NCBI GenBank assembly: GCA_963779195.1
Contig: CAVZWZ010000008.1
Location: 431,289 to 495,288, forward strand
Length of the DNA stretch: 64,000 nucleotides
Direction of reading: 5' to 3'
Source: an uncultured Alphaproteobacteria bacterium
GTDB taxonomy: Bacteria; Pseudomonadota; Alphaproteobacteria; Sphingomonadales; Sphingomonadaceae
Below the pieces are notes generated by a model. That model ran no database searches. It was not told the origin of the DNA and saw only the letters and a program-made list of their open reading frames with translations. Positions 4,087 to 53,213 of this stretch are shown here, piece after piece. The position numbers and the translations under genes were made by a program. The first letter of the stretch is position 1, and the number at the start of each line of letters is the position of its first letter.

Positions 4087-4548
4087 ATGTCCACTCCCGC
4101 CACCATCAGTCCGCGCATCATCGAAGGGCTCTATTGCGAGGCGCTCGTGCTGTCGGACGAAGTGCGCGCAGCCTTTGCCCTGTCGGGACGGCTCAGCCGG
4201 GCAGGCAGCGAGGAAGACCTCGCGCGGGTGGCGCTTTCCTGCGAGGGGTTGCGCACCACCACCCGGATGATGCATGCGTTGGCCTGGCTGCTCAACTACC
4301 GCGCTTATTTTCTGGGCGAAATCTCCGAATTCCAGCTGCGCCGCTATGGCCGGTTGGCCAGCGATCACGGTGGGGCGGGGCCGGACCATCAGGACATGCT
4401 CGATATGCCCACCCGCCAGCTGATCGCCGCGACCGAGCGCTTCTATGCCCGTTTGCAGCGGCTCGACCTGGGCTGGCGCGAGCACATGCCGGTCGCCCCG
4501 GGCGCGATTGAGCGGATTCGCGACCGGGTGAGCGCGGCGACCAACTGA
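4087..4548 (+). CDS. DUF1465 family protein (RcdA-like regulator of CtrA degradation)
   Basis: IEGLYCEALVLSDEVRAAF...LSCEGLRTTTRMMHALAWLL...ERFYARLQRLD matches the DUF1465 pattern. Confidence 0.8.
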   Translation: MSTPATISPRIIEGLYCEALVLSDEVRAAFALSGRLSRAGSEEDLARVALSCEGLRTTTRMMHALAWLLNYRAYFLGEISEFQLRRYGRLASDHGGAGPDHQDMLDMPTRQLIAATERFYARLQRLDLGWREHMPVAPGAIERIRDRVSAATN

Positions 4549-4569
4549 ATTGCCGCGCAGCGGCCGGGT

Positions 4570-6049
4570 TCAGACGCCCGCCATCGCCTTGTCCCAAGCC
4601 TCCAGCCTCGCAGCCCGCTCTCCGGCGGCCATCGCCGGGGCAAACCGCCGCACGCTGCCGCGCATGGCTGCCGACGCCTCTTCCAGCGACGCAAACAACC
4701 CCGCGCCAAGCCCGGCCAGCATCGCCGCGCCCAGCGCCGTGGTCTCGACGAAGTCGGGCCGCTCGACCGGCAGCTCCAGCATGTCGGCCAGATCCTGCGC
4801 CATCCAGTCGTTGGCGCTCATCCCGCCGTCGATGCGCAGCGTCGTCCAGCCCGCGCCGTCGCCCGCGAAAGCCCGGGCGAGGTCGTGGGTCTGCAGCGCC
4901 ATCGCCTCCAGCGCGGCGCGGACGATATGGGCGCGGGTGGTGGCGAAGCTCATGCCGCGTGATTGCCGCGCGCGCCTCTGGCCGCCAATGCGGCGCCCCC
5001 AGACCGGATAGCGCGGGCACCACCACTACCCCGCCGCTGTCCGCCACCGAGCGGGCCAGCGCCTCGCTCTCATCCGCGCCGGCGATCAGCCCCAGCGAAT
5101 CGCGCAGCCACTGCATCAGACTGCCGGCAACGAAGACCGAGCCTTCCAGAGCGTACAACCGCGTCCCGCCCAGCTGGCACAGCACCGTGCCGAGCAGCCG
5201 GTGCCGCGATTGCGGTATCGCCGCGCCCCGGTTCGCCAGCACGAAAGCGCCGGTGCCATAGGTCGCTTTGGTGTCGCCGGGCGCAAGGCAGCCCTGGCCG
5301 ATCGTCGCCGATTGCTGGTCGCCCGCAAGCCCGGTTATGGCAATGGGCGAGCCGAACAGCTCGGGCAGGGTCGCGCCAAACGATCCGGCATTGTCGGTCA
5401 CTTCGCCCAGAGCGCCAGGCGGCACGCCGAACAGATCGCACAGGCCGGGATCGAACTGCGCGACCGCCAGCGGCAGCAGGCTGGTGCGGCTGGCGTTGCT
5501 GGCGTCGCTGATCTGCAGTCCGCCGGTCAGCTTCGCGACAAGCCAGCTCTCCACCGTGCCCAGCGCCAGCCGGCTACCTGCCGCCGCCTCGGCCACCGCA
5601 GGGGAATTGTCGATCAGCCAGCGCATCTTTGTCGCGGAGAAATAGGGATCGAGCAGCAGCCCGGTCTGCGCCTGCACCGCCGCCTCTTGCCCCGCCTCGC
5701 GCAGCGCGGCGCAGGCATCGGCGGTGCGCCGGTCCTGCCAGACCAGCGCGCGGTGCAGCGGTTCGAGCGTCTTCCGGTCCCAGGCGACCACGGTTTCGCG
5801 CTGGTTGGTGATGCCGATACCGGCGATCCGGTCCGCGCCGCCGGCTTGCGTGATGACATCCTGGGCGCAGGCGAGCGTCGATTGCCAGATTTCGTCCGCA
5901 TCGTGTTCGACCCAGCCCGGCTGGGGATAGTGCTGGGCAAGCTCCCTTTGCGCCAATGCGCGCAGGCCGCCTCGCCGGTCGAAAACCATGGCGCGGGTCG
6001 AGGTGGTGCCCGCGTCGAGCACGAGAATAAGTTCGCCTGGCGGGTTCAT
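4570..6049 (-). CDS. glpK: glycerol kinase, one frameshift near 4957 (probable sequencing error)
   Basis: LDAGTTSTRA, GITNQRETVVAWD, LLDPYFSATK, GDQQSA, KATYGTG; C-terminal part (IDGGMSANDW, ETTALGAA) continues in ORF 4570-4953 after one extra base. Confidence 0.92.
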
Positions 6050-6069
6050 GAAGTTCTCCCCCACCCCTT

Positions 6070-6101
6070 GTGCCGTTCGTGTCGAGCGAAGTCGAGACAC
6101 C
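6070..6101. repeat. short REP-like palindromic unit (GTTCGTGTCGAGCGAAGTCGAGACAC)
   Basis: Imperfect hairpin GTGTC-GAGCGAAGTCGA-GACAC between divergent glpK and MBL genes; GAGC-N3-GTCGA core shared with the repeats at 11776 and 20274. Confidence 0.5.
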
Positions 6102-6154
6102 TCGCGCAACAGTTGGGCTTGGCGGAAGCCTCGCACACGTCCATATCGCCCTCC

Positions 6155-7027
6155 ATGGAATTCCCGCCCAAGCCTTGGCCCGTCGCTCGTGCCGAACAAA
6201 CCGAGCCGCTGGTGCGCCGGGTGCTGGTCGACAATCCCTCGGCCTTCACCTTCACCGGCACCCAGACCTACCTCGTCGGCAGCGAGGGCGAGGTCGCGGT
6301 GATCGATCCCGGACCGGACGAGCCCGAACATATCGCCGCGCTGGTCCGGATTATCGGCGATGCCCGCCTCGTCGCCATCGCCTGCACCCATACCCACCGC
6401 GACCACTCCCCCGCCGCAGCCCCGCTCGCCGCCGCGACCGGTGCCCCGATCATCGGCTGCGCGCCCCTATCGCTGACCGACGACGGCCCCCGCGCCGACG
6501 CCGCATTCGATCCGAGCTATGCGCCCGAACGCGTCCTCGGCGATGGCGATGCGCTCTCCGGCAAGGGCTGGACCCTGACCGCCGTCGCCACTCCCGGCCA
6601 CACTTCGAACCACCTGTGCTATGCGCTGGAGGAATCCGGCGCGCTGTTCACCGGCGATCACGTGATGGGCTGGTCGACCACGGTGATCGCTCCGCCCGAT
6701 GGCGATATGGCCGACTACATGGCCAGCCTGCACAAGCTCCAGGACCGCGAGGACCGCGTCTATTACCCGGCCCACGGCCCGGCGGTGACCAAGCCGCGCC
6801 AGCTGGTGCGCGGCATGATCGGCCACCGCCGCCAGCGCGAAAGCCAGATCCTGCGGCTGATCGGCGAGGGCACCGGGGCGATCGAAGACATGGTGCCGCA
6901 GATGTACAAGGGCGTCGATGAGCGCATGTGGCCGGCGGCGGGCCGCTCGGTGCTCGCCCATCTGATCGACCTCGAGCGCAAGGGCCGCGTTGCCCGCGAT
7001 GGCGAGCTGTGGACAGCGGCGGCCTGA
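6155..7027 (+). CDS. MBL-fold metallo-hydrolase (LACTB2-like)
   Basis: NPSAFTFTGTQTY, THTHRDH, TPGHTSNH, GDHVMG, PAHG. Confidence 0.93.
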   Translation: MEFPPKPWPVARAEQTEPLVRRVLVDNPSAFTFTGTQTYLVGSEGEVAVIDPGPDEPEHIAALVRIIGDARLVAIACTHTHRDHSPAAAPLAAATGAPIIGCAPLSLTDDGPRADAAFDPSYAPERVLGDGDALSGKGWTLTAVATPGHTSNHLCYALEESGALFTGDHVMGWSTTVIAPPDGDMADYMASLHKLQDREDRVYYPAHGPAVTKPRQLVRGMIGHRRQRESQILRLIGEGTGAIEDMVPQMYKGVDERMWPAAGRSVLAHLIDLERKGRVARDGELWTAAA

Positions 7028-7644
7028 CTGTGCGGCGCGGGGCGGCGCTGGCGCCGGCGCTTCCTTGGGCGCTGTTCGCGGCGGCGCTGGCGCTTGCGGT
7101 CTGGGCGCTGTGGCCCGGGGCGAAAGGCGATCCGCTCGGCGCGACGCTGACCGCCTTCGAGAAGCAGAACCGGCTTACCGTGTTCAGCGCCCAGCTCTCG
7201 CCGGTGGTCGCTGCCGACGAGGAGGCGCTGTTCGGCATGCTGACGACCAAGCAGGTCGCGGTGATCCCGGCGCGGGTCGATTACATGCTCGATCTCAGCG
7301 CCGTCTCGCGCGAACGGCTGGGCTGGGACGCCAATGCGCAGCGGCTCGATGTCCGCCTGCCGCCGCTGGTGCTCAGCCGCCCCAACCTCGACGAGGGCCG
7401 CGCGCAATATCTGCGCGAAGGCGTGTGGATCAGCCGCACAACGCAAGACAAGCTGACCCGCGAGAACACGAAGCTCGCCGAGAAGCTGGCGGCGGACCAG
7501 GCCACCAATCCGGTGCTGCTGAACCTCGCCGCCAGCGCCGCCAAGGATGCGATCCGGCAGAACCTGTCGATCCCGCTGCAGGTCGCGGGCTTTGGCGATG
7601 TCGTGGTCGCGGTGCGGTTCGATGGCGAGCGGGCGGCGCCCTGA
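7009..7644 (+). CDS. DUF4230 domain membrane-anchored protein
   Basis: N-terminal TM helix, then VIPARVDYMLDLS...LDVRLPPL; start uncertain (GTG 7009). Confidence 0.7.
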   Translation: MDSGGLTVRRGAALAPALPWALFAAALALAVWALWPGAKGDPLGATLTAFEKQNRLTVFSAQLSPVVAADEEALFGMLTTKQVAVIPARVDYMLDLSAVSRERLGWDANAQRLDVRLPPLVLSRPNLDEGRAQYLREGVWISRTTQDKLTRENTKLAEKLAADQATNPVLLNLAASAAKDAIRQNLSIPLQVAGFGDVVVAVRFDGERAAP

Positions 7645-7663
7645 TTTGCCGGCGGGGGCGCGC

Positions 7664-9400
7664 TTGCTGAAACGGTCGGCGCTCGGGCCGCTGGCCGCCG
7701 CCGCGCTGGCGCTGGCCGTGGCGCTGGCGGTGTTCGGCCTGCGCATCGCCGATCCGCGCGATGCCAGCTGGATATCCGGCGACGCGGTCACCGCGCTGTT
7801 CGGCTGGCGGCAGTATCTGGCCGACCCGGCGCATCTGTTCCCCGTGGTCTCGGATCGCGCTTCCTGGCCGCTGCCGATGCCGGTGGCGGTGTTCGACGCG
7901 ATCCCGATCGCCGCGCTGATCGCCAAGGCCCTTGCGCCGCTGCTGCCTGCGCAGTTCCACTATTTCGGCCTGGCGTTCCTCACCGGCGTCTTCCTGCAGG
8001 CGCTGTTTGCCTGGGCGCTGCTGCGCGAGGCGACACGGGGGCGGGAAGGGGAGGGGTGGGCCTACCAAGCGGCGCTGCTGATCGGCGCGCTGTTCTTCGC
8101 CACCGCGCCAATCCTGCTGACCCGCTTCTACGTCACGCAAATGGCGCTGGCGATCCAGTGGCCGCTGATCGCTGCGCTGTGGCTTTACGTGCGCAGCGCC
8201 CGGGTTGGTTTCTGGCGCAGCATCCGCGATTTCTCGGCGCTCGGCTTCGTCGGGGCGGCGATCAATCCCTACACGATGGCGATGGTGCTGCTGATCTACG
8301 CGGCGTTCGTGCTCAAGGCGATTCTCGAAAGATCGCTGCGCCCGCTCGATCTGGTCGCCGTTCTGGCGCCGGGCCTCTGCGCGCTTGGGCGGTTTGATCC
8401 TGTTCGGTTTTGTCGATCCGGGCAGCGGCGGCTCGCTTGGCGACGCGGGCTTCGGCATCTTCTCGGCGAGTCCGCTCACCCTGTTCGAGCCGATGCCGAA
8501 AATCCTGGGCTCGCAGTTCATCCCCGCGCTCGGCATCGCCAGCCGGGCGCAGTTCGAGGGCTTCGGCTATTTGGGGCTCGGCGCGCTGCTGCTGATCATC
8601 GGCGGGTTGGGCCTGATCGCCAGGCGTCGGGACGGCGGCGGAGGCTTGACGAAGCCGCTGCTCATCGTCGCCGCGCTGGCCTATCTCTGGGCCTTGTCGA
8701 ACGTGGTGACGATCGGCACCTGGCGTTTCGAGGTGCCACTGCCTTCGGGACTGCGCAATCTGCTGGAGAACTTCCGCTCGTCCGGGCGTTTCATCTGGGT
8801 CGCCGTCTACGCCTTGCTGTTCGTCGCCATCTCCGGCCTGATTCGTCTCGCCGCTCCTCGCCGTGCCGCTGCGCTGCTGCTGGCGGCGGCGCTGGTCCAG
8901 ATCGCCGATCTCGCCGGGCCGCTGGCGCAGATGCACCAGCGCTTCGCCGAACGGCGCGGGGCGGCGCAGTTCAGCGATGCCGCCTATGCCGGGTTGGGCC
9001 AGGCGCACGATACGCTGCTGATCGCGCCGCCCTGGCAATGCCGCAGGGGCGACGGGGCCAAGGGAGAATATCCCGATTCGATGTTCGCGCAATTTTCCGT
9101 GCTGGCGATGGAAGGCGGCCTGCGGACCAACAGCTTCTACGGCGGGCGCACCCCGCGCAACCAGGCCGAAATACCACTGCAAGGCCTTCCCCGCTGCGCT
9201 TGGGGCCAGGCCGGCGGACAAGCGCACGGCCTATCTGCTGTCGCCGCGCGGCTTCCGCAGCTTCGGCGCGCATATCGCTGCGACGCATCGCTTGCGATTT
9301 CGCCGAGAATTTCTACATCTGCCGGGGTGACGGCGGCGCATCCGGGTTCACCCCGCGCGCGCGGCAGGCGCTTTTCGTGCCCGGCAATTCGGCGCTATAG
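7664..9400 (+). CDS. polytopic membrane protein, DUF6311/GT-C-like, with three single-base frameshifts (~8388, ~9170, ~9292)
   Basis: DAIP, YFG, QFEGFGYLGLG and FRSSGRFIW motifs; coding passes through frames 7547, 8385, a third frame (YHCKAFPAALG...) and back to 7547 (CDFAENFYIC). Confidence 0.7.
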   Translation: MLKRSALGPLAAAALALAVALAVFGLRIADPRDASWISGDAVTALFGWRQYLADPAHLFPVVSDRASWPLPMPVAVFDAIPIAALIAKALAPLLPAQFHYFGLAFLTGVFLQALFAWALLREATRGREGEGWAYQAALLIGALFFATAPILLTRFYVTQMALAIQWPLIAALWLYVRSARVGFWRSIRDFSALGFVGAAINPYTMAMVLLIYAAFVLKAILERSLRPLDLVAVLAPGLCALGRFDPVRFCRSGQRRLAWRRGLRHLLGESAHPVRADAENPGLAVHPRARHRQPGAVRGLRLFGARRAAADHRRVGPDRQASGRRRRLDEAAAHRRRAGLSLGLVERGDDRHLAFRGATAFGTAQSAGELPLVRAFHLGRRLRLAVRRHLRPDSSRRSSPCRCAAAGGGAGPDRRSRRAAGADAPALRRTARGGAVQRCRLCRVGPGARYAADRAALAMPQGRRGQGRISRFDVRAIFRAGDGRRPADQQLLRRAHPAQPGRNTTARPSPLRLGPGRRTSARPICCRRAASAASARISLRRIACDFAENFYICRGDGGASGFTPRARQALFVPGNSAL

Positions 9401-9408
9401 GAACAGCC

Positions 9409-10395
9409 ATGAACCAGCAAACACGCCTCGCAGGCACCGACCTGCTCGCCGAAATCGACCGCCTGCGCAAAGAGCGCAACGCGGTGATCCTCGCCCATTA
9501 TTACCAGAAGCCGGAGATCCAGGATCTCGCCGATTATGTCGGCGATTCGCTGGAACTGTCCAAAAAGGCGGCGGCGACCGATGCCGAGGTGATCGCTTTC
9601 TGCGGCGTGAAATTCATGGCCGACACCGCGAAAATCCTCAGCCCCGAAAAGATTGTCGTGCTGCCCGATCTCAACGCCGGATGCAGCCTCGAGGATTCCT
9701 GCCCGCCCGAGAAATTCAAGGCCTTCCGCGAAGCCCACCCCGATCACATCGCGCTGACTTATATCAATTGCTCGACCGAGGTGAAGGCGCTGAGCGACGT
9801 GATCGTCACCAGCTCCAGCGCCGAGATCATCCTCCAGCAAATTCCGCCGGAACAGAAGATCATATTCGGCCCCGACCGGCATCTGGGCGGCTATCTCAGC
9901 CGCAAGTTCAACCGGCCAATGCTGCTGTGGCCGGGCGTCTGCATCGTCCACGAGGCGTTTTCGGAAACCGAGCTGCTCAAACTCAAGGCCCAGCACCCCG
10001 GCGCGCCGATAGCGGCCCACCCCGAATGCCCCCCCGCAATCATCGACCACGCCGATTACGTCGGCTCGACCAGCGGCATCCTCAATTTCGCCAAGACCTT
10101 CCCCGGCGACACGCTGATCGTCGCCACCGAGCCGCACATCATCCACCAGATGGAAAAGGCCCTGCCGGATAAACGCTTCATCGGCGCACCCGGCGCCGAC
10201 GGCAACTGCAACTGCAACATCTGCCCCTACATGGCGCTGAATACGCTGGAGAAACTCTACGTCGCGCTGAGGGACTTGCAGCCGAGGATCGAGATCGAGG
10301 AAGGCCTGCGGCTGGCGGCGAAGAAGAGCCTGGACCGGATGCTGGAGATGGCGGCGGGGACGGTGGGCAAGGGGGATTTGGGGGTGAAGATTTAG
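9409..10395 (+). CDS. nadA: quinolinate synthase
   Basis: ILAHYYQ, GDSLELS, FCGVKFMA, AGCSL, YINCS, CIVH, AHPEC, GST, CPYM. Confidence 0.98.
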   Translation: MNQQTRLAGTDLLAEIDRLRKERNAVILAHYYQKPEIQDLADYVGDSLELSKKAAATDAEVIAFCGVKFMADTAKILSPEKIVVLPDLNAGCSLEDSCPPEKFKAFREAHPDHIALTYINCSTEVKALSDVIVTSSSAEIILQQIPPEQKIIFGPDRHLGGYLSRKFNRPMLLWPGVCIVHEAFSETELLKLKAQHPGAPIAAHPECPPAIIDHADYVGSTSGILNFAKTFPGDTLIVATEPHIIHQMEKALPDKRFIGAPGADGNCNCNICPYMALNTLEKLYVALRDLQPRIEIEEGLRLAAKKSLDRMLEMAAGTVGKGDLGVKI

Positions 10396-10398
10396 CCG

Positions 10399-10668
10399 AT
10401 GCCGATTATCTCGATTTTCTTCGGCATCGTGATCCGGATGTATCACGACGAGCATCCGCCGCCCCATTTCCATGCCACCTATCAGGGCCAATCGGCATTT
10501 GTCCGAATTTCCGATGGCAGGATTGTTGCCGGTTCGCTGCCGAAGAAGGCTGAAAGGCTGGTGCGGCAATGGGCGCTGGACCACGGGCAAGAACTTATGG
10601 CAAATTGGCAACGCGGCATCGATATGCTGCCGATGCAGCTGATTCCGGGAGCCGATAGCGATGATTAG
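10399..10668 (+). CDS. DUF4160 family protein (putative type II toxin)
   Basis: MPIISIFFGIVIRMYHDEHPPPHFHATY...LVRQWALDHGQELMANW. Confidence 0.9.
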   Translation: MPIISIFFGIVIRMYHDEHPPPHFHATYQGQSAFVRISDGRIVAGSLPKKAERLVRQWALDHGQELMANWQRGIDMLPMQLIPGADSDD

Positions 10669-10927
10669 TCTCGTCAGCCTGGCCGTCGAAGGGCCAAGCG
10701 AACTTCTGTTGACATTTTCCGACGAGAGCTTCGGTACCTGGTCTGCGGCGGAAGTCATTGCACGCGACACGATCTTGACCCGTCCGCTGGCCGAGCCGGA
10801 ATACTTTGCGCGCGCATTTATCGAGGGTGGTGAAGGCCTCGCCTGGCCCAACGGGCTGGAGTTTTCGGCTGCGGCGCTGCATCGCAAACTGGATGAAGCC
10901 GGTCGGCTGGTTCTGCGGGCGGCGTAA
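10661..10927 (+). CDS. DUF2442 family protein (putative antitoxin)
   Basis: LLLTFSD...PLAEPEYFARAFIEGGEGLAWPNGLEF; overlaps the DUF4160 gene. Confidence 0.85.
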   Translation: MISLVSLAVEGPSELLLTFSDESFGTWSAAEVIARDTILTRPLAEPEYFARAFIEGGEGLAWPNGLEFSAAALHRKLDEAGRLVLRAA

Positions 10928-10935
10928 CCAAGCGC

Positions 10936-10995
10936 GACCGCATGCTGGAGATGGCGGCGGGGACTGTCGGCAAGGGGGATTTGGGGGGGCGGTGA
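10936..10995 (+). repeat. diverged duplicate of the nadA 3' end
   Basis: Encodes DRMLEMAAGTVGKGDLGGR*; 48/51 nt identical to 10333-10383, with all 3 differences synonymous. Confidence 0.93.
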
Positions 10996-11008
10996 AAGGA
11001 GACGGTTG

Positions 11009-11650
11009 ATGTCATTCATGATCAACGCAGCAGATTTGGCCCGTGAACGTGGAATTGATCCGAAGCGGTTTCGCGCCAAATTACGGCAGAGCGGGTTGTC
11101 ATGGCATGATCACAATGATCGCTGGACTGTGGAGCACGGTAGTGATCGTCACCATGCAATCATGGCGGTTCTGGAAGGACTCACAAAAGGCGGCGCAATT
11201 TCTGTCAGAGAGACCGCAATTCCTGCACGCCAAGCCCAAGTAACAACTCGCGACACAAGTGACGAATGTTATATTATTGATTTATGTGATTCCTTGCTCG
11301 AGCAGTCCGCGCATCGACAACATCGCTTCGAATTCTTGAGAGGTGACTCTGGCAGAGAATTGCCGGTTGATGCCTGGTATCCGGAATTGGAAATTGTCAT
11401 CGAATATCGCGAACGACAACATTCAGAGACCGTTGCCTTTTTCGACAGGAGACAGACTGTATCGGGCGTTGGGCGCGGAGAGCAGCGGCGCATTTACGAC
11501 CAGCGCCGTCGCGAGATTCTGCCCAAGCATTCTATCACACTTGTGGAGCTCGATTTTTCTGAGTTTCCTCACAAGTCCAACCGACGTCTAATCCGAACGA
11601 CGGATGACAAAGAGATCATTGCCAAGCGATTGGCGGCGTTCCTTAAATAG
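11009..11650 (+). CDS. lower-GC hypothetical protein: N-terminal HTH-like region + PD-(D/E)XK/Vsr-like nuclease domain
   Basis: AADLARERGIDPKRFRAKLR; RQHRFEFLRG...LPVDAWYPELEIVIEYRERQH...YDQRRR; AAGGAG RBS. Confidence 0.6.
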   Translation: MSFMINAADLARERGIDPKRFRAKLRQSGLSWHDHNDRWTVEHGSDRHHAIMAVLEGLTKGGAISVRETAIPARQAQVTTRDTSDECYIIDLCDSLLEQSAHRQHRFEFLRGDSGRELPVDAWYPELEIVIEYRERQHSETVAFFDRRQTVSGVGRGEQRRIYDQRRREILPKHSITLVELDFSEFPHKSNRRLIRTTDDKEIIAKRLAAFLK

Positions 11651-12030
11651 CCTCAAAACTCACCCGCAACCTCGTCCCCGTCGCCTTCGCCAGCTTCGCC
11701 AGCGTCGTCGTCGAAGGCCGCGACTTGCCGCCTTCGAGCCGAGCGATCGCGCTCGGGGCGGTGCCCATACCTCACCCCTTCCCCGTCTACCCTGAGCTTG
11801 TCGAAGGGCTGTCCTTCTGCTTGACGCCGGGCGCGGCCGCACGAAGATAAAGTGCAGCCCTTCGACAAGCTCAGGGTAGACGGGGAAGGGCGTGGTTCCG
11901 GTCACTTGCAGGTGGCCCCGCACGCGCCTCGATCAGCGCGGTGGCGAGCGCGAATTCCTCCTCCAACGCCTCGTATTCGCGCACGAACGCCGGATTCTTG
12001 AACCACTCGTCGTTGAGCTTCGAAAGGCAG
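11643..12030 (-). pseudogene. XRE-family HTH antitoxin split by a palindromic element
   Basis: N-half LSKLNDEWFKNPAFVREYEALEEEFALATALIEARA (~12027-11920); C-half MGTAPSAIARLEGGKSRPSTTTLAKLAKATGTRLRVSFEAI* (11768-11643); helix 2 is missing where the repeat sits. Confidence 0.8.
11776..11890. repeat. palindromic REP/MITE-like element with a perfect 36-bp inverted repeat
   Basis: CCCTTCCCCGTCTACCCTGAGCTTGTCGAAGGGCTG (11776-11811) and its exact reverse complement (11855-11890). Confidence 0.95.
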
Positions 12031-12045
12031 ATGAATGAGTTCCTG

Positions 12046-12336
12046 TCACCCCGCCACCGCCCGCGCCGCCATCTCCGGTTCCGCAGCGATCACCTTGAGG
12101 TAAGCCCGCACCGCAGGCGGCGGCATGTGCCTGCCAATTTCGTATTGGCGGATATTCGCCGCCGGGATACCGAAAGCGCTGGCGAACTCCTGCTGGCTCA
12201 TTCCCAGCCGGTTGCGCAATTTGCGGATACGGCGGCCCATCAGGCCACGTTCGAGCGCGGCGACGGTTACGTCGCGGTCTTCGGAATCATTGGGGTCAGC
12301 CGGGATAGCGATCGTAGTCTCTTTGTTCACTTGCAT
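12046..12336 (-). CDS. XRE-type HTH antitoxin paired with BrnT
   Basis: IRKLRNRLGMSQQEFASAFGIPAANIRQYEIGRHMP; overlaps the toxin 3' end; start at 12336 or 12330. Confidence 0.85.
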   Translation of the reverse strand: MQVNKETTIAIPADPNDSEDRDVTVAALERGLMGRRIRKLRNRLGMSQQEFASAFGIPAANIRQYEIGRHMPPPAVRAYLKVIAAEPEMAARAVAG

Positions 12337-12571
12337 TGCTCCTACGGACGGAGATGAAACGGACAACATCGTCTCGCCAGACATGGATGGCGGTGTGAAG
12401 TTTGCCATCGACCATGCCGATTACCTTGAGCCGTTCCTCTTCATCGCCGAGGCGCACGGTCGGAACAATTACGTGATCCGGATCGTCAAAAACCCGCCTT
12501 CCGAAAGCCAGCCGCAGTCCGTGCTTGAAGCGGTTGGCCTCATCCTTGGCCGGATCCCATTCGAACTCCAT
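12296..12571 (-). CDS. BrnT family toxin (DUF497)
   Basis: MEFEWDPAKDEANRFKHGL...EERLKVIG...RFISVRRSN. Confidence 0.92.
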   Translation of the reverse strand: MEFEWDPAKDEANRFKHGLRLAFGRRVFDDPDHVIVPTVRLGDEEERLKVIGMVDGKLHTAIHVWRDDVVRFISVRRSNASEQRDYDRYPG

Positions 12572-12763
12572 GCCGTTTCATAAGTGATTCACACATAACA
12601 CGCAATTCGAGACAGGTCGAGAACGGATCGATTCGCCGCCAATCCCACCCCCCATTAGCCCGATCTTAAGCACCCTTTTTTCATACTCCCCCCGTAAAAT
12701 CCGCCCCATCGACCAAACGCGCTGCAAGGGGCGCAGGCGGACCAAGCACAGGGATCGCAGACA

Positions 12764-13693
12764 ATGACCTACCGCTCATGGCTGTTCGTGCCGGGCCACA
12801 GCGAGACCAAGCTGGCGAAAGCCAATGCCACTGGCGCGGATGTCGTGGTGGTCGATCTCGACGCCTCGGTGCCCTCCGACGCCAAGGCGCAGGCGCGGCA
12901 GATGGGGGCCGAGTGGCTCACGCTCCACCGCAGGCAGGTGACCGAACAGGCCGGCCGCGCGCGCTGGGTGCGGATCAACAGTCTCGACAGCCGCCAGTGG
13001 CGCGAGGATCTGGTCGCGGTGCTGCCGGGCGCGCCCGAGGGCATCGTCCTGCCTTGCTCGGCGGGACCGGAGGCAGTGCGGCAGCTGGGCGCGGAGCTTT
13101 ACGAGCTCGAAGGGGCGAGCCAGGTCCAGCCGGGTTCGACCAGAATTCTGGCGCTCGCCGGTGAAACCGCGCAGTCGGCCATGGCGATCGGGAGCTATAT
13201 CGACGCGTCGCTGCCGCGCCTTGCCGGGCTCGGCTGGGGGGCGGAGCGGCTGGCGCAGGCCTTGGGCGCAACCCGCATGCGCGATGCCAAAGGGGCGCGG
13301 GGCGACGCCTTCCGCTTCGTGCGGGCGCAGACCCTGATCACCGCGCATGCCTGCGGCGCGATGGCGCTGGAGACGCTCGATGCCGCGCACACCGACGCCA
13401 AGGCGATCAAGGCTGCGGCGAGAGATGCCTGCGCCGACGGCTTCACCGGCATGTTCGCGCATCATCCGGCGCAAATCGCCGAGATCAACGCCGCCTTCAC
13501 CCCCAGCGAGGCGGAGCTTGAAGAGGCGCGCCGGATCGTCGCCGCGTTCGAGGGCGGGGCGGATGCCGGCGAACCGGCGTTCGACCGCAGCCCGATCGAT
13601 CACCCGCAATTGAAGCTGGCGAAGCAGATGCTGGGCCTGGCCGGAACGCCCGGCCAGGCTTCCCGGCCCGCGCCTATTCTTCGCCCGGCCTAG
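12764..13693 (+). CDS. CitE/HpcH-like CoA ester lyase family protein (divergent)
   Basis: RSWLFVPG, ADVVVVDLDASV, WVRIN, ADGFTGMFAHHPAQIAEINAAFTPS. Confidence 0.85.
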   Translation: MTYRSWLFVPGHSETKLAKANATGADVVVVDLDASVPSDAKAQARQMGAEWLTLHRRQVTEQAGRARWVRINSLDSRQWREDLVAVLPGAPEGIVLPCSAGPEAVRQLGAELYELEGASQVQPGSTRILALAGETAQSAMAIGSYIDASLPRLAGLGWGAERLAQALGATRMRDAKGARGDAFRFVRAQTLITAHACGAMALETLDAAHTDAKAIKAAARDACADGFTGMFAHHPAQIAEINAAFTPSEAELEEARRIVAAFEGGADAGEPAFDRSPIDHPQLKLAKQMLGLAGTPGQASRPAPILRPA

Positions 13694-52433: not shown

Positions 52434-52823
52434 TCAGCCGATGTTGAGGTTATAAAACGCCGCCAGCTTGTTGCCGTCCGGATCGCGCAGATAAGCCCCG
52501 AACGAGCCGGGGGCCTGCGGCTTGGGCTCGGGGATGCCTTCGCAAGAGCCGCCATTGGCCAGCCCCGCCGCATGCCAGGCGGCGACATCCGCTTCGCTGT
52601 CAGCCTGGAACAGGATGGTGCCGCCATTGGCGTGGGTCGCCGCCTTGCCGTCGCGCGCCGGACCGATCGCGAAGTTGGGTCCGCCCGGCAGCTTGTACAT
52701 GGCGATGGGATATTCGTCGGGCATCGGCGTCCGCTCGACCCCGAGCACGCCAAAGGTCGCGTCGTAAAAGGCGCGCGCCTTGGCGAGATCGTTGCAGCCG
52801 ATCCGCAGGTTCTGGAGTTTCAT
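52434..52823 (-). CDS. VOC/glyoxalase family protein
   Basis: IGCNDLAKARAFYDA...ANGG...AYLRDPDGNKL. Confidence 0.92.
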   Translation of the reverse strand: MKLQNLRIGCNDLAKARAFYDATFGVLGVERTPMPDEYPIAMYKLPGGPNFAIGPARDGKAATHANGGTILFQADSEADVAAWHAAGLANGGSCEGIPEPKPQAPGSFGAYLRDPDGNKLAAFYNLNIG

Positions 52824-52835
52824 CGGTTCCGCTCC

Positions 52836-53213
52836 TCAAGCCGCCGGCAGCATGGCGCAAAGCTTGTTGCCGTCGGGATCGCGCAGATAGGCGAGATAGA
52901 GCTTGGCGAAGCCGAGATCGCGCACCCCCGGCGGGTCCTCGCAAGAAGTGCCGCCCGCCGCGACGCCGGCATCGTGCCAGGCATTGGCCTGCTCGCTGCT
53001 GTCCATCGAAAAGCCGATGGTGCCGCCATTGGCGAAGCTGGCGGGTTCGCCGTTGATCGGCGTCGAGATCATGAAATTGCTGCCTTTGTGGGCATAGGCC
53101 AGCCGAGTGCCCATATCCATGCCCGGTTTGCCGCCGATGGCGGTGAAAACGGCGTCGTAGAATTTCTTCGATTTGGCGAGGTCGTTGCTGCCGACCACAA
53201 CATGCGTGAACAT
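52836..53213 (-). CDS. VOC/glyoxalase family protein (tandem paralog)
   Basis: MFTHVVVGSNDLAKSKKFYDA...ANGGTIGF...YLAYLRDPDGNKLCA. Confidence 0.93.
   Translation of the reverse strand: MFTHVVVGSNDLAKSKKFYDAVFTAIGGKPGMDMGTRLAYAHKGSNFMISTPINGEPASFANGGTIGFSMDSSEQANAWHDAGVAAGGTSCEDPPGVRDLGFAKLYLAYLRDPDGNKLCAMLPAA

Follow-up and report, generated by a model that had tools for sequence, protein, structure and literature searches.

A predicted toxin-antitoxin cassette between two diverged copies of the nadA gene end, and other duplicated gene ends in a Sphingomonadaceae genome

A gene pair between two nadA tails

How does a small gene pair come to lie between two copies of the end of a housekeeping gene when no integrase is in view, and where did each copy come from? 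The locus that raises this question lies in the window, by which we mean the whole analysed stretch of 64,000 nucleotides (contig CAVZWZ010000008.1, positions 431,289 to 495,288, of an uncultured alphaproteobacterium of the Sphingomonadaceae, assembly GCA_963779195.1). The arrival and pile-up of chromosomal toxin-antitoxin (TA) islets without mobility genes are described as poorly characterised by Belot et al. 2026 (PMC13617665). The features of the locus, in window coordinates and with our own labels for genomes (G), contigs (C) and loci of relatives (L), are as follows.

9409..10395, + strand: nadA, quinolinate synthase, 328 aa (Pfam NadA, E 4e-115); its ending, DLGVKI and stop, was seen once among 146 tails
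10333..10384, + strand: tail copy 1, the one nadA uses, rich in G and poor in C (GC skew 0.62 vs genome gene-tail mean 0.09)
10399..10668, + strand: DUF4160 protein, 89 aa, DhiT-like predicted toxin (Pfam PF13711, 81.8 bits, above cut-off)
10661..10927, + strand: 88-aa DUF2442-like protein and predicted antitoxin whose gene overlaps the toxin stop (Pfam PF10387, below cut-off)
10928..10935, + strand: 8-nt junction from the antitoxin stop to tail copy 2, loosely resembling the nadA codons directly before the repeat
10936..10995, + strand: tail copy 2 with its own stop, read here as the displaced resident nadA end (60 nt, 98.3% identical to the nadA end that L037 uses)
11006..11650, + strand: low-GC gene, 213/214 aa, possible nuclease, read here as the older cargo unit (ATG 11009; homologues in L045 and L052)
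11651..12036, - strand: broken XRE-type antitoxin gene with a REP-like palindrome inside and no nadA tail (matches an intact Gp49-XRE pair behind polA, C8:772 kb)
11776..11890, no strand: REP-like palindrome, 41-nt arms, many genome copies (Rfam hairpin match below threshold only)
12046..12571, - strand: BrnT toxin with an XRE partner, the variable interval's third module (Pfam BrnT_toxin and HTH)
12764..13693, + strand: HpcH/HpaI aldolase / citrate lyase family gene that forms the conserved flank on the downstream side (L031 and L032, the empty alleles, have it 150-220 nt past nadA)

The two tails form a direct repeat of 52 nt (10333-10384 and 10936-10987) with an offset of 603 nt and 94% identity. 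Its alignment score of 90 is above chance, the maximum over 999 random 5-kb windows of the genome being 44, and the repeat is unique, with these two copies in the whole genome. The copies differ at 10338 (G/C), 10362 (G/T) and 10365 (G/C), each a third codon position, which gives three synonymous and no non-synonymous differences over 17 codons; the three synonymous mismatches of the original prediction are thus confirmed for the 52-nt repeat. Its geometry holds as well: the DUF4160 start codon (10399) follows the nadA stop after 3 nt, and the second tail begins 8 nt after the DUF2442 stop (10927). Copy 1 ends in DLGVKI (stop 10393-10395) and copy 2 in DLGGR (stop 10993-10995). The 551 nt between the copies hold only two ORFs, stay under 20 kb and carry no other mobile element.

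No inverted repeat was found at the 3- and 8-nt spacers among the 25 longest listed. Differences at template adenines, the TR/VR criterion of a diversity-generating retroelement, are absent, the three differences being G/C, G/T and G/C. A guide-RNA-bearing element was rejected because non-coding sequence in the unit amounts to just 3 and 8 nt, with no Rfam match there. The comparison with an integron cassette array (IntI, attC hairpins) also came out negative: the window holds no tyrosine recombinase, and the unit offers spacers of 3 and 8 nt plus a coding tail.

The DUF4160 protein scores 64.6 bits against NCBIfam toxin_DhiT (cut-off 100). Its DUF2442-like partner reaches 18.1 bits against Pfam PF10387 (E 0.003; cut-off 23.9), gives no match to the DhiA model in NCBIfam, and has a 93% identical counterpart at the equivalent place in L053. 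Judged from sequence, the pair is likely a DhiTA-like TA cassette. Its GC content is 58-62%, that of the following ORF about 50% and that of the genome about 65%. A Shine-Dalgarno motif, AAGGAG (10996-11001), precedes ATG 11009 of the low-GC ORF. The prediction of a lower-GC, nuclease-like gene with a ribosome binding site stands for composition and motif; 'nuclease-like' depends on weak labels (PHROG homing endonuclease, E 9e-6; Atlas neighbours at 0.86-0.89), with no convincing match in Pfam (only DUF3384, E 0.043) and none in NCBIfam, PADLOC or PDB. The modules at 11651-12571 lie on the opposite strand and have no nadA tail, leaving a nadA stack two units deep.

The truncated XRE antitoxin fragment of 11651-12036 recurs at the nadA spot of eight relatives (L013, L036, L037, L052, L053, L056, L058 and L065), often beside a REP. 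At the right edge of the variable interval (12590-12710) the top strand is C-rich, with a skew of -0.41 that mirrors the G-rich nadA tail; L037 and L053 look similar. Elsewhere in the window, a gene at 4292-6406, presumably glycerol-kinase-like, and a DUF6311 gene at 7547-9400 contain apparent frameshifts, as do many genes of this assembly, and these are likely sequencing indels. A 32-nt repeat at about 52465-52892 was discarded as tandem paralogous genes, which we take to be glyoxalase-like, with no displaced tail.

The nadA locus in related genomes

We searched the last 44 residues of nadA in 376 genomes of the genus and obtained matches in 362, a tally that includes one unpublished genome (G208), which enters nothing else reported here. 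A renewed search of the 78 other genomes with at least two matches revealed adjacent second copies in G212, G364, G233 and, weakly, G236, so that second nadA tails appear uncommon (four found by search of 375 other genus genomes). We examined 150 nadA loci: an initial set of 30, 40 chosen non-randomly for closeness or multiple matches, and 80 from metagenomes. At least 1.2 kb of downstream DNA was present in 127 loci besides this one.

Clear second tails occur in five other genus genomes. Three of them carry a Gp49/RelE-HTH pair as cargo (L044, L051, L052), one the same DUF4160 pair (L053) and one an Mrr gene with two partial tails (L065). The locus L151 repeats the L053 alignment and was left out of the count as a separate case. 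Shorter remnants are present in L190, again with the same DUF4160 pair, and, by eye, in L008 and L056; none of the 80 metagenome loci has a second tail.

The cargo behind second tails is found elsewhere in other positions. The nuclease-like gene, second-position cargo in L001/L052, has a homologue that directly follows nadA in L045. Likewise, MUG113 cargo stands behind the second tail in L044 and directly after an intact nadA in L037/L149, and a membrane-type ORF stands behind the second tail in L053 and directly after an intact nadA in L060/L069/L115. Empty sites with a single tail and no cargo exist in L031 and L032. A look for a same-species genome with an empty, single-copy site turned up only congeners at 84-89% nadA DNA identity, whose single tails have no cargo (L031, L032) or other cargo (L037, L045) behind them. 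L051 and L069, at 96.6% identity as far as the nadA stop, have no cargo in common beyond it. The original prediction had expected relatives in which nadA is followed by the nuclease gene, as in L045 (which ends in DLGAR rather than DLGGR), and relatives with other cargos each behind a nadA tail, as in L044, L051, L052, L053 and L065. Its integrase-free stacking of tail-plus-cargo units is borne out for the units and for the lack of a detected integrase, with a stack only two deep.

In a tree of the nadA body, neither the carriers of the DUF4160 pair nor those of RelE-type pairs form a clade (AU p 9e-6 and 7e-56, with groups defined by cargo label after an earlier tree had been viewed). Non-monophyly can also stem from repeated loss.

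The endings of the two tails point to their origins. Among 146 tails, the residues after GDLG are AR in 37, RA in 17, KR in 8 and GR in 8; VKI occurs only in this genome. Tail 2 has 1 difference in 51 nt from the nadA end at work in L037 (98.3% identity over 60 nt through the stop) and 3 in 51 nt, plus the terminal codons, from its own tail 1. In contigs of public runs, a nadA end in GGR and stop runs into three other sequences, one of them the start of Mrr. The GR ending, the match to L037 and the other cargo in public contigs together identify tail 2 as a recently working allele, and the last codons of tail 1 would have come with the pair. Behind the DUF4160 pair, tail 2 is of GKG type here and of GMG type in L053, each resembling its own subclade. 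Both copies were under coding constraint separately. This agrees with the earlier claim of two alleles and no fresh duplication. A reciprocal crossover inside the 52 nt was also considered and proved not demonstrable, there being 10 haplotypes among 12 alleles.

Duplicated and C-poor gene ends elsewhere

The original prediction called for a genome-wide scan for gene-tail copies downstream of their genes, and our scans returned eight more duplicated ends besides nadA. The nine repeats measure 25-122 nt with 0.4-2.5 kb between copies. Nine is a lower bound, given our own ad hoc gene calls and the frameshifts in the assembly, and the cases were chosen by eye from 37 + 4 candidates; tandem paralogues among the repeat matches (a VOC pair, C5:272918) were excluded by eye. 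The eight are:

G000 C9:30837-32340: parE
G000 C9:43656-44507: grpE
G000 C9:82526-83515: N-formylglutamate amidohydrolase
G000 C2:13673-16245: methylmalonyl-CoA mutase
G000 C4:152806-153545: gatB, Uma2 cargo
G000 C2:41101-41943: SDR
G000 C8:314071-314675: sufB, REP between copies
G000 C6:59644-60093: unnamed gene

TA genes lie inside six of the nine (nadA, parE, grpE, amidohydrolase, mutase, SDR); the others enclose Uma2, a REP and a small secreted-type ORF. No junction motif is visible by eye across the nine sites. The parE tails of this genome show five synonymous and no non-synonymous differences over 37 codons. Among 75 close genomes, second tails were found in 3 of 64 matched parE loci and 1 of 68 amidohydrolase loci, and the parE repeat of G228 brackets a non-TA gene. 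Across 31 amidohydrolase alleles a new C-terminus accompanies the AbrB-PIN pair in 8 of 8 cases and is seen in 0 of 23 without the pair; the second tail of this genome is of the pair-less type. DUF4160-DUF2442 pairs lie between repeats of 39-180 nt at nadA, parE, atpG and pnp, and most of the 38 loci with relatives of this pair have no gene-tail repeat.

Two candidate signals were dropped. What looked plausible as a decayed stretch 5' of the second tail at parE is not significant, being reached by 240 and 28 of 500 shuffles. The reduced identity seen across the 5' third in second tails was partly built into the slice starts, with the L207 slice misplaced.

Some neighbourhoods of DUF4160 genes have more elaborate layouts. 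In L194 (G364 C2:744963-748175), atpG is followed by two different DUF4160 modules, each behind a 39-nt atpG tail. A close DUF4160-DUF2442 pair in L154 (3273-4206) lies within a 180-nt duplicate of the pnp end that includes a REP-like hairpin and part of the terminator, and duplicated terminator-like hairpins occur near DUF4160-DUF2442-type genes in L152, L170 and L171.

First copies at eight of the nine duplicated ends have a GC skew of at least 0.26, compared with a background of 0.09 +/- 0.18. Genome-wide, the tail-minus-body shift in third-position C is -0.17 in 94 genes before low-GC DNA (p 1e-8), -0.10 in 200 genes before REPs (p 1e-4) and -0.06 in 1564 others. In the window (10260-10395) as in the whole genome, synonymous C at tails adjoining variable DNA is replaced mostly by G, and gene heads beside low-GC DNA or REPs show no codon shift. 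At nadA, third-position C is 0.35 in 39 cargo alleles compared with 0.54 in 94 others, and empty alleles of the same clade are also C-poor. Of 13 independent pairs on the tree, about five associate cargo with a C-poor tail and none or one opposes it, which is not significant (median p 0.06-0.125). C depletion at cargo-adjacent tails is strong within the genome and no more than suggestive across relatives.

C-poor tails with no duplicate found (L278, L281, L273, L280, L211, L285) have varied cargo behind them. Behind C-poor single tails we saw restriction-modification pairs (a C5 methylase with a XamI-like or NotI-like enzyme), AbrB-PIN between gatA and gatB, TacA-GNAT after dnaJ, Gp49-XRE after polA, and HNH plus HigBA.

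Routes of insertion and relation to known systems

We consider it probable that RecA-type recombination adds a tail-plus-cargo unit ahead of the resident unit, with a circular or a linear donor alike. The pair, joined to the final 60-75 nt of nadA from a relative, would undergo one recombination with the resident tail, the donor being a small circle or a linear piece whose right arm is the carried tail copy; a linear donor that already carries the second tail gives a product identical to that of a circle. The state seen at the locus is an intact nadA with donor-type last codons, the pair next, and the resident end and cargo kept behind. The pair-plus-tail unit would then own its homology arm, could be added ahead of any nadA allele, and could be lost by tail-tail recombination. 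Ordinary host recombination adding cassettes ahead of residents likely also left the scar at the eight or more other gene ends.

Putative addiction by the pair would slow loss of the unit and, if real, would explain why TA genes lie inside most surviving repeats. It is not required, since some repeats hold non-TA cargo (Uma2, Mrr, lipoprotein, REP). In Photorhabdus laumondii, TA systems did not preserve their neighbourhoods and were often lost, according to PMC13617665.

Experimental support for single-crossover duplication comes from E. coli, where a recircularised fragment gave duplications of 109-950 bp in a recA-dependent manner (PMC3240628). The same source describes homology-facilitated illegitimate recombination, the route originally proposed for this locus, as typically giving an insertion plus a deletion, and in that form the proposal is not supported. 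The genome has the genes for ComEC and DprA; the gene transfer agent marker GTA_TIM was not found in the 85% complete genome, and one IS110 and one Y1 transposase match are both distant from the nadA site. Several observations count against the recombination reading. An arm of 50-75 nt is short for RecA, the near-constant start of second tails behind one cargo is what a site-specific event would also give, second tails are uncommon, and many alleles that carry TA genes lack one (6 of 8 for the amidohydrolase, and L061 for nadA).

An improbable alternative is that the repeats are attL and attR of a site-specific integrative element whose integrase was lost or is supplied in trans. Replacement of a 3' end with synonymous differences is the classic footprint of integrative elements: those that enter the 3' ends of protein genes, such as e14 in E. 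coli icd, restore the target with a replacement end and displace the old end, which carries synonymous differences, and e14 and CIME-type accretion are precedents. The best argument for such an element is the tight fit of the unit, 3 nt past the host stop and 0-8 nt past the antitoxin stop, which may instead reflect repeated trimming; the junction position is also nearly constant for a given cargo. The genome contains eight tyrosine-recombinase matches, two of which, XerC/XerD-sized genes at G000 C9:37968-38474 and C2:3282-3794, are within 5-13 kb of the duplicated tails of parE, grpE and the mutase, possibly by coincidence. Against this, the contig has no tyrosine-recombinase match closer to the window than about 160 kb, and no resolvase matched in the 85% complete genome. 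A profile search found no integrase in the window or about 212 downstream flanks, including the nadA, parE and amidohydrolase sites examined; both controls were positive, and the profile was built from the genome's own eight matches, which distant integrases may escape. Furthermore, at least 11 unrelated target genes are involved with repeats of 25-180 nt, and one cargo family sits at nadA, parE, atpG and pnp with no fixed target and core. In these respects the present units are unlike e14-type elements, having no integrase, no fixed att core, cargo of 0.4-2.5 kb and many unrelated targets.

We think it very unlikely that a cargo nuclease cuts cargo-free nadA tails, so that repair copies the cargo in the manner of intronless homing and recoded tails are immune. 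Such a process would fit the nuclease-like cargos (the window ORF, MUG113/T5orf172 with an HNH repeat, Mrr, Uma2), the recoding of cargo-adjacent tails towards G, and the tie between long target duplications and double-strand breaks drawn in PMC2853133. However, the inserted unit is the TA pair and not the nuclease-like gene, many sites have no nuclease, and G-rich tails also occur in the empty alleles L031, L032 and L038.

We give as little credence to a long target-site duplication in which insertion itself copied the resident tail locally and the two copies then drifted apart. The 94% identity would suit it, and such duplications are a described class (PMC2853133); the three differences are nevertheless all synonymous, tail 2 is nearer another genome's working end than it is to tail 1, and the parE tails repeat the synonymous pattern.

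An assembly artefact fusing two strains has a minimal probability, for although the frameshifts are typical of long-read errors and no public-run contig crosses the second repeat with 31 nt of flank at each end, the nadA-pair-tail layout recurs in the assemblies L053 and L190, and contigs of two studies span the antitoxin stop and junction to 10935 (0 differences) and 10938. Among the public runs listed, none contains as many as half of the sequence words of the window, and no RNA run was among those that contain them. Public-run contigs, all of mixed strains, include joints in which the pair is skipped, and these may derive from other strains.

RecA-type addition of units thus remains our preferred reading. 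A bolder extension, rather unlikely in our view, would have a Novosphingobium-like clade use TA modules as enzyme-free mobile units with a host-tail copy as arm, forming RecA-only, integron-like stacks at dozens of genes, with C-poor, G-rich tails selected as recombination docks (for example as unstructured single strands or R-loop-prone DNA). The genus presents the intermediates, namely an empty site, one unit, two units and decayed tails, and an additive recombinase-free route is thereby directly testable. A duplicated or recoded gene tail could serve as a simple marker for spots that collect defence-type and TA genes, and C-poor tails as a compositional mark of such spots.

We class the nadA arrangement as a variant of two described processes: insertion with long target duplication, for which the original paper is reportedly that of Nobusato in 2000, and the 3'-end displacement known from rhs tips. 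Furuta, Abe and Kobayashi 2010 (PMC2853133) describe the former as restriction-modification genes within long variable direct repeats of more than 30 bp, a length that our 52-nt repeat exceeds. Shared with that class are a selfish gene pair, long variable repeats and the lack of another mobile element; some class repeats overlap a gene's 3' end, and many cases come from competent species. In contrast, the cargo here is mostly type II TA with no R and M genes, and the repeats are housekeeping coding tails with synonymous differences, representing two alleles, in units that stack and at nine or more genes.

At rhs tips, according to Jackson et al. 2009 (PMC2935791), the end already in place is pushed downstream by an incoming conserved 3' fragment with its variable part, and the model there proposes homologous recombination with a circular intermediate, fragments of variable length and exchange among kin. 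A displaced end that is in use elsewhere is found here too, in tail 2 (98.3% to L037) and in the amidohydrolase ends. Unlike rhs, the host gene is a conserved enzyme with a hardly changed end, the variation lies in a separate operon downstream of it, and the arms are 25-180 nt. Amarir-Bouhram et al. 2011 likewise describe foreign DNA with one homologous end that integrates and duplicates the target by a single crossover (PMC3240628), in an E. coli plasmid model and not in natural gene-end arrays as here.

The islets of Belot et al. 2026 resemble ours in being TA-only, free of mobility genes and clustered in small variable spots. Their model replaces an interval between two core genes, whereas the unit here carries the tail of the upstream gene and is added without removing resident cargo; the phrase 'direct repeat' has 0 occurrences in PMC13617665. 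Like the DhiTA system that Boss et al. 2021 (PMC8198452) describe in Dickeya dadantii, the pair combines DUF4160 and DUF2442, has the toxin gene first and overlaps; unlike it, the pair scores below the NCBIfam cut-offs, and at 88 aa the partner has roughly half the length of the DhiA model (160 positions). A literature search, with most subscription papers and supplements outside its range, found no account of Sphingomonadales TA modules that come with duplicated tails of housekeeping genes, and none of C-poor tails where cargo sits. Together the comparisons identify a known kind of event that is unusually frequent in this genome, to which the present locus and its relatives add scale, TA cargo, a visible exchange of units among congeners, and C-poor tails.
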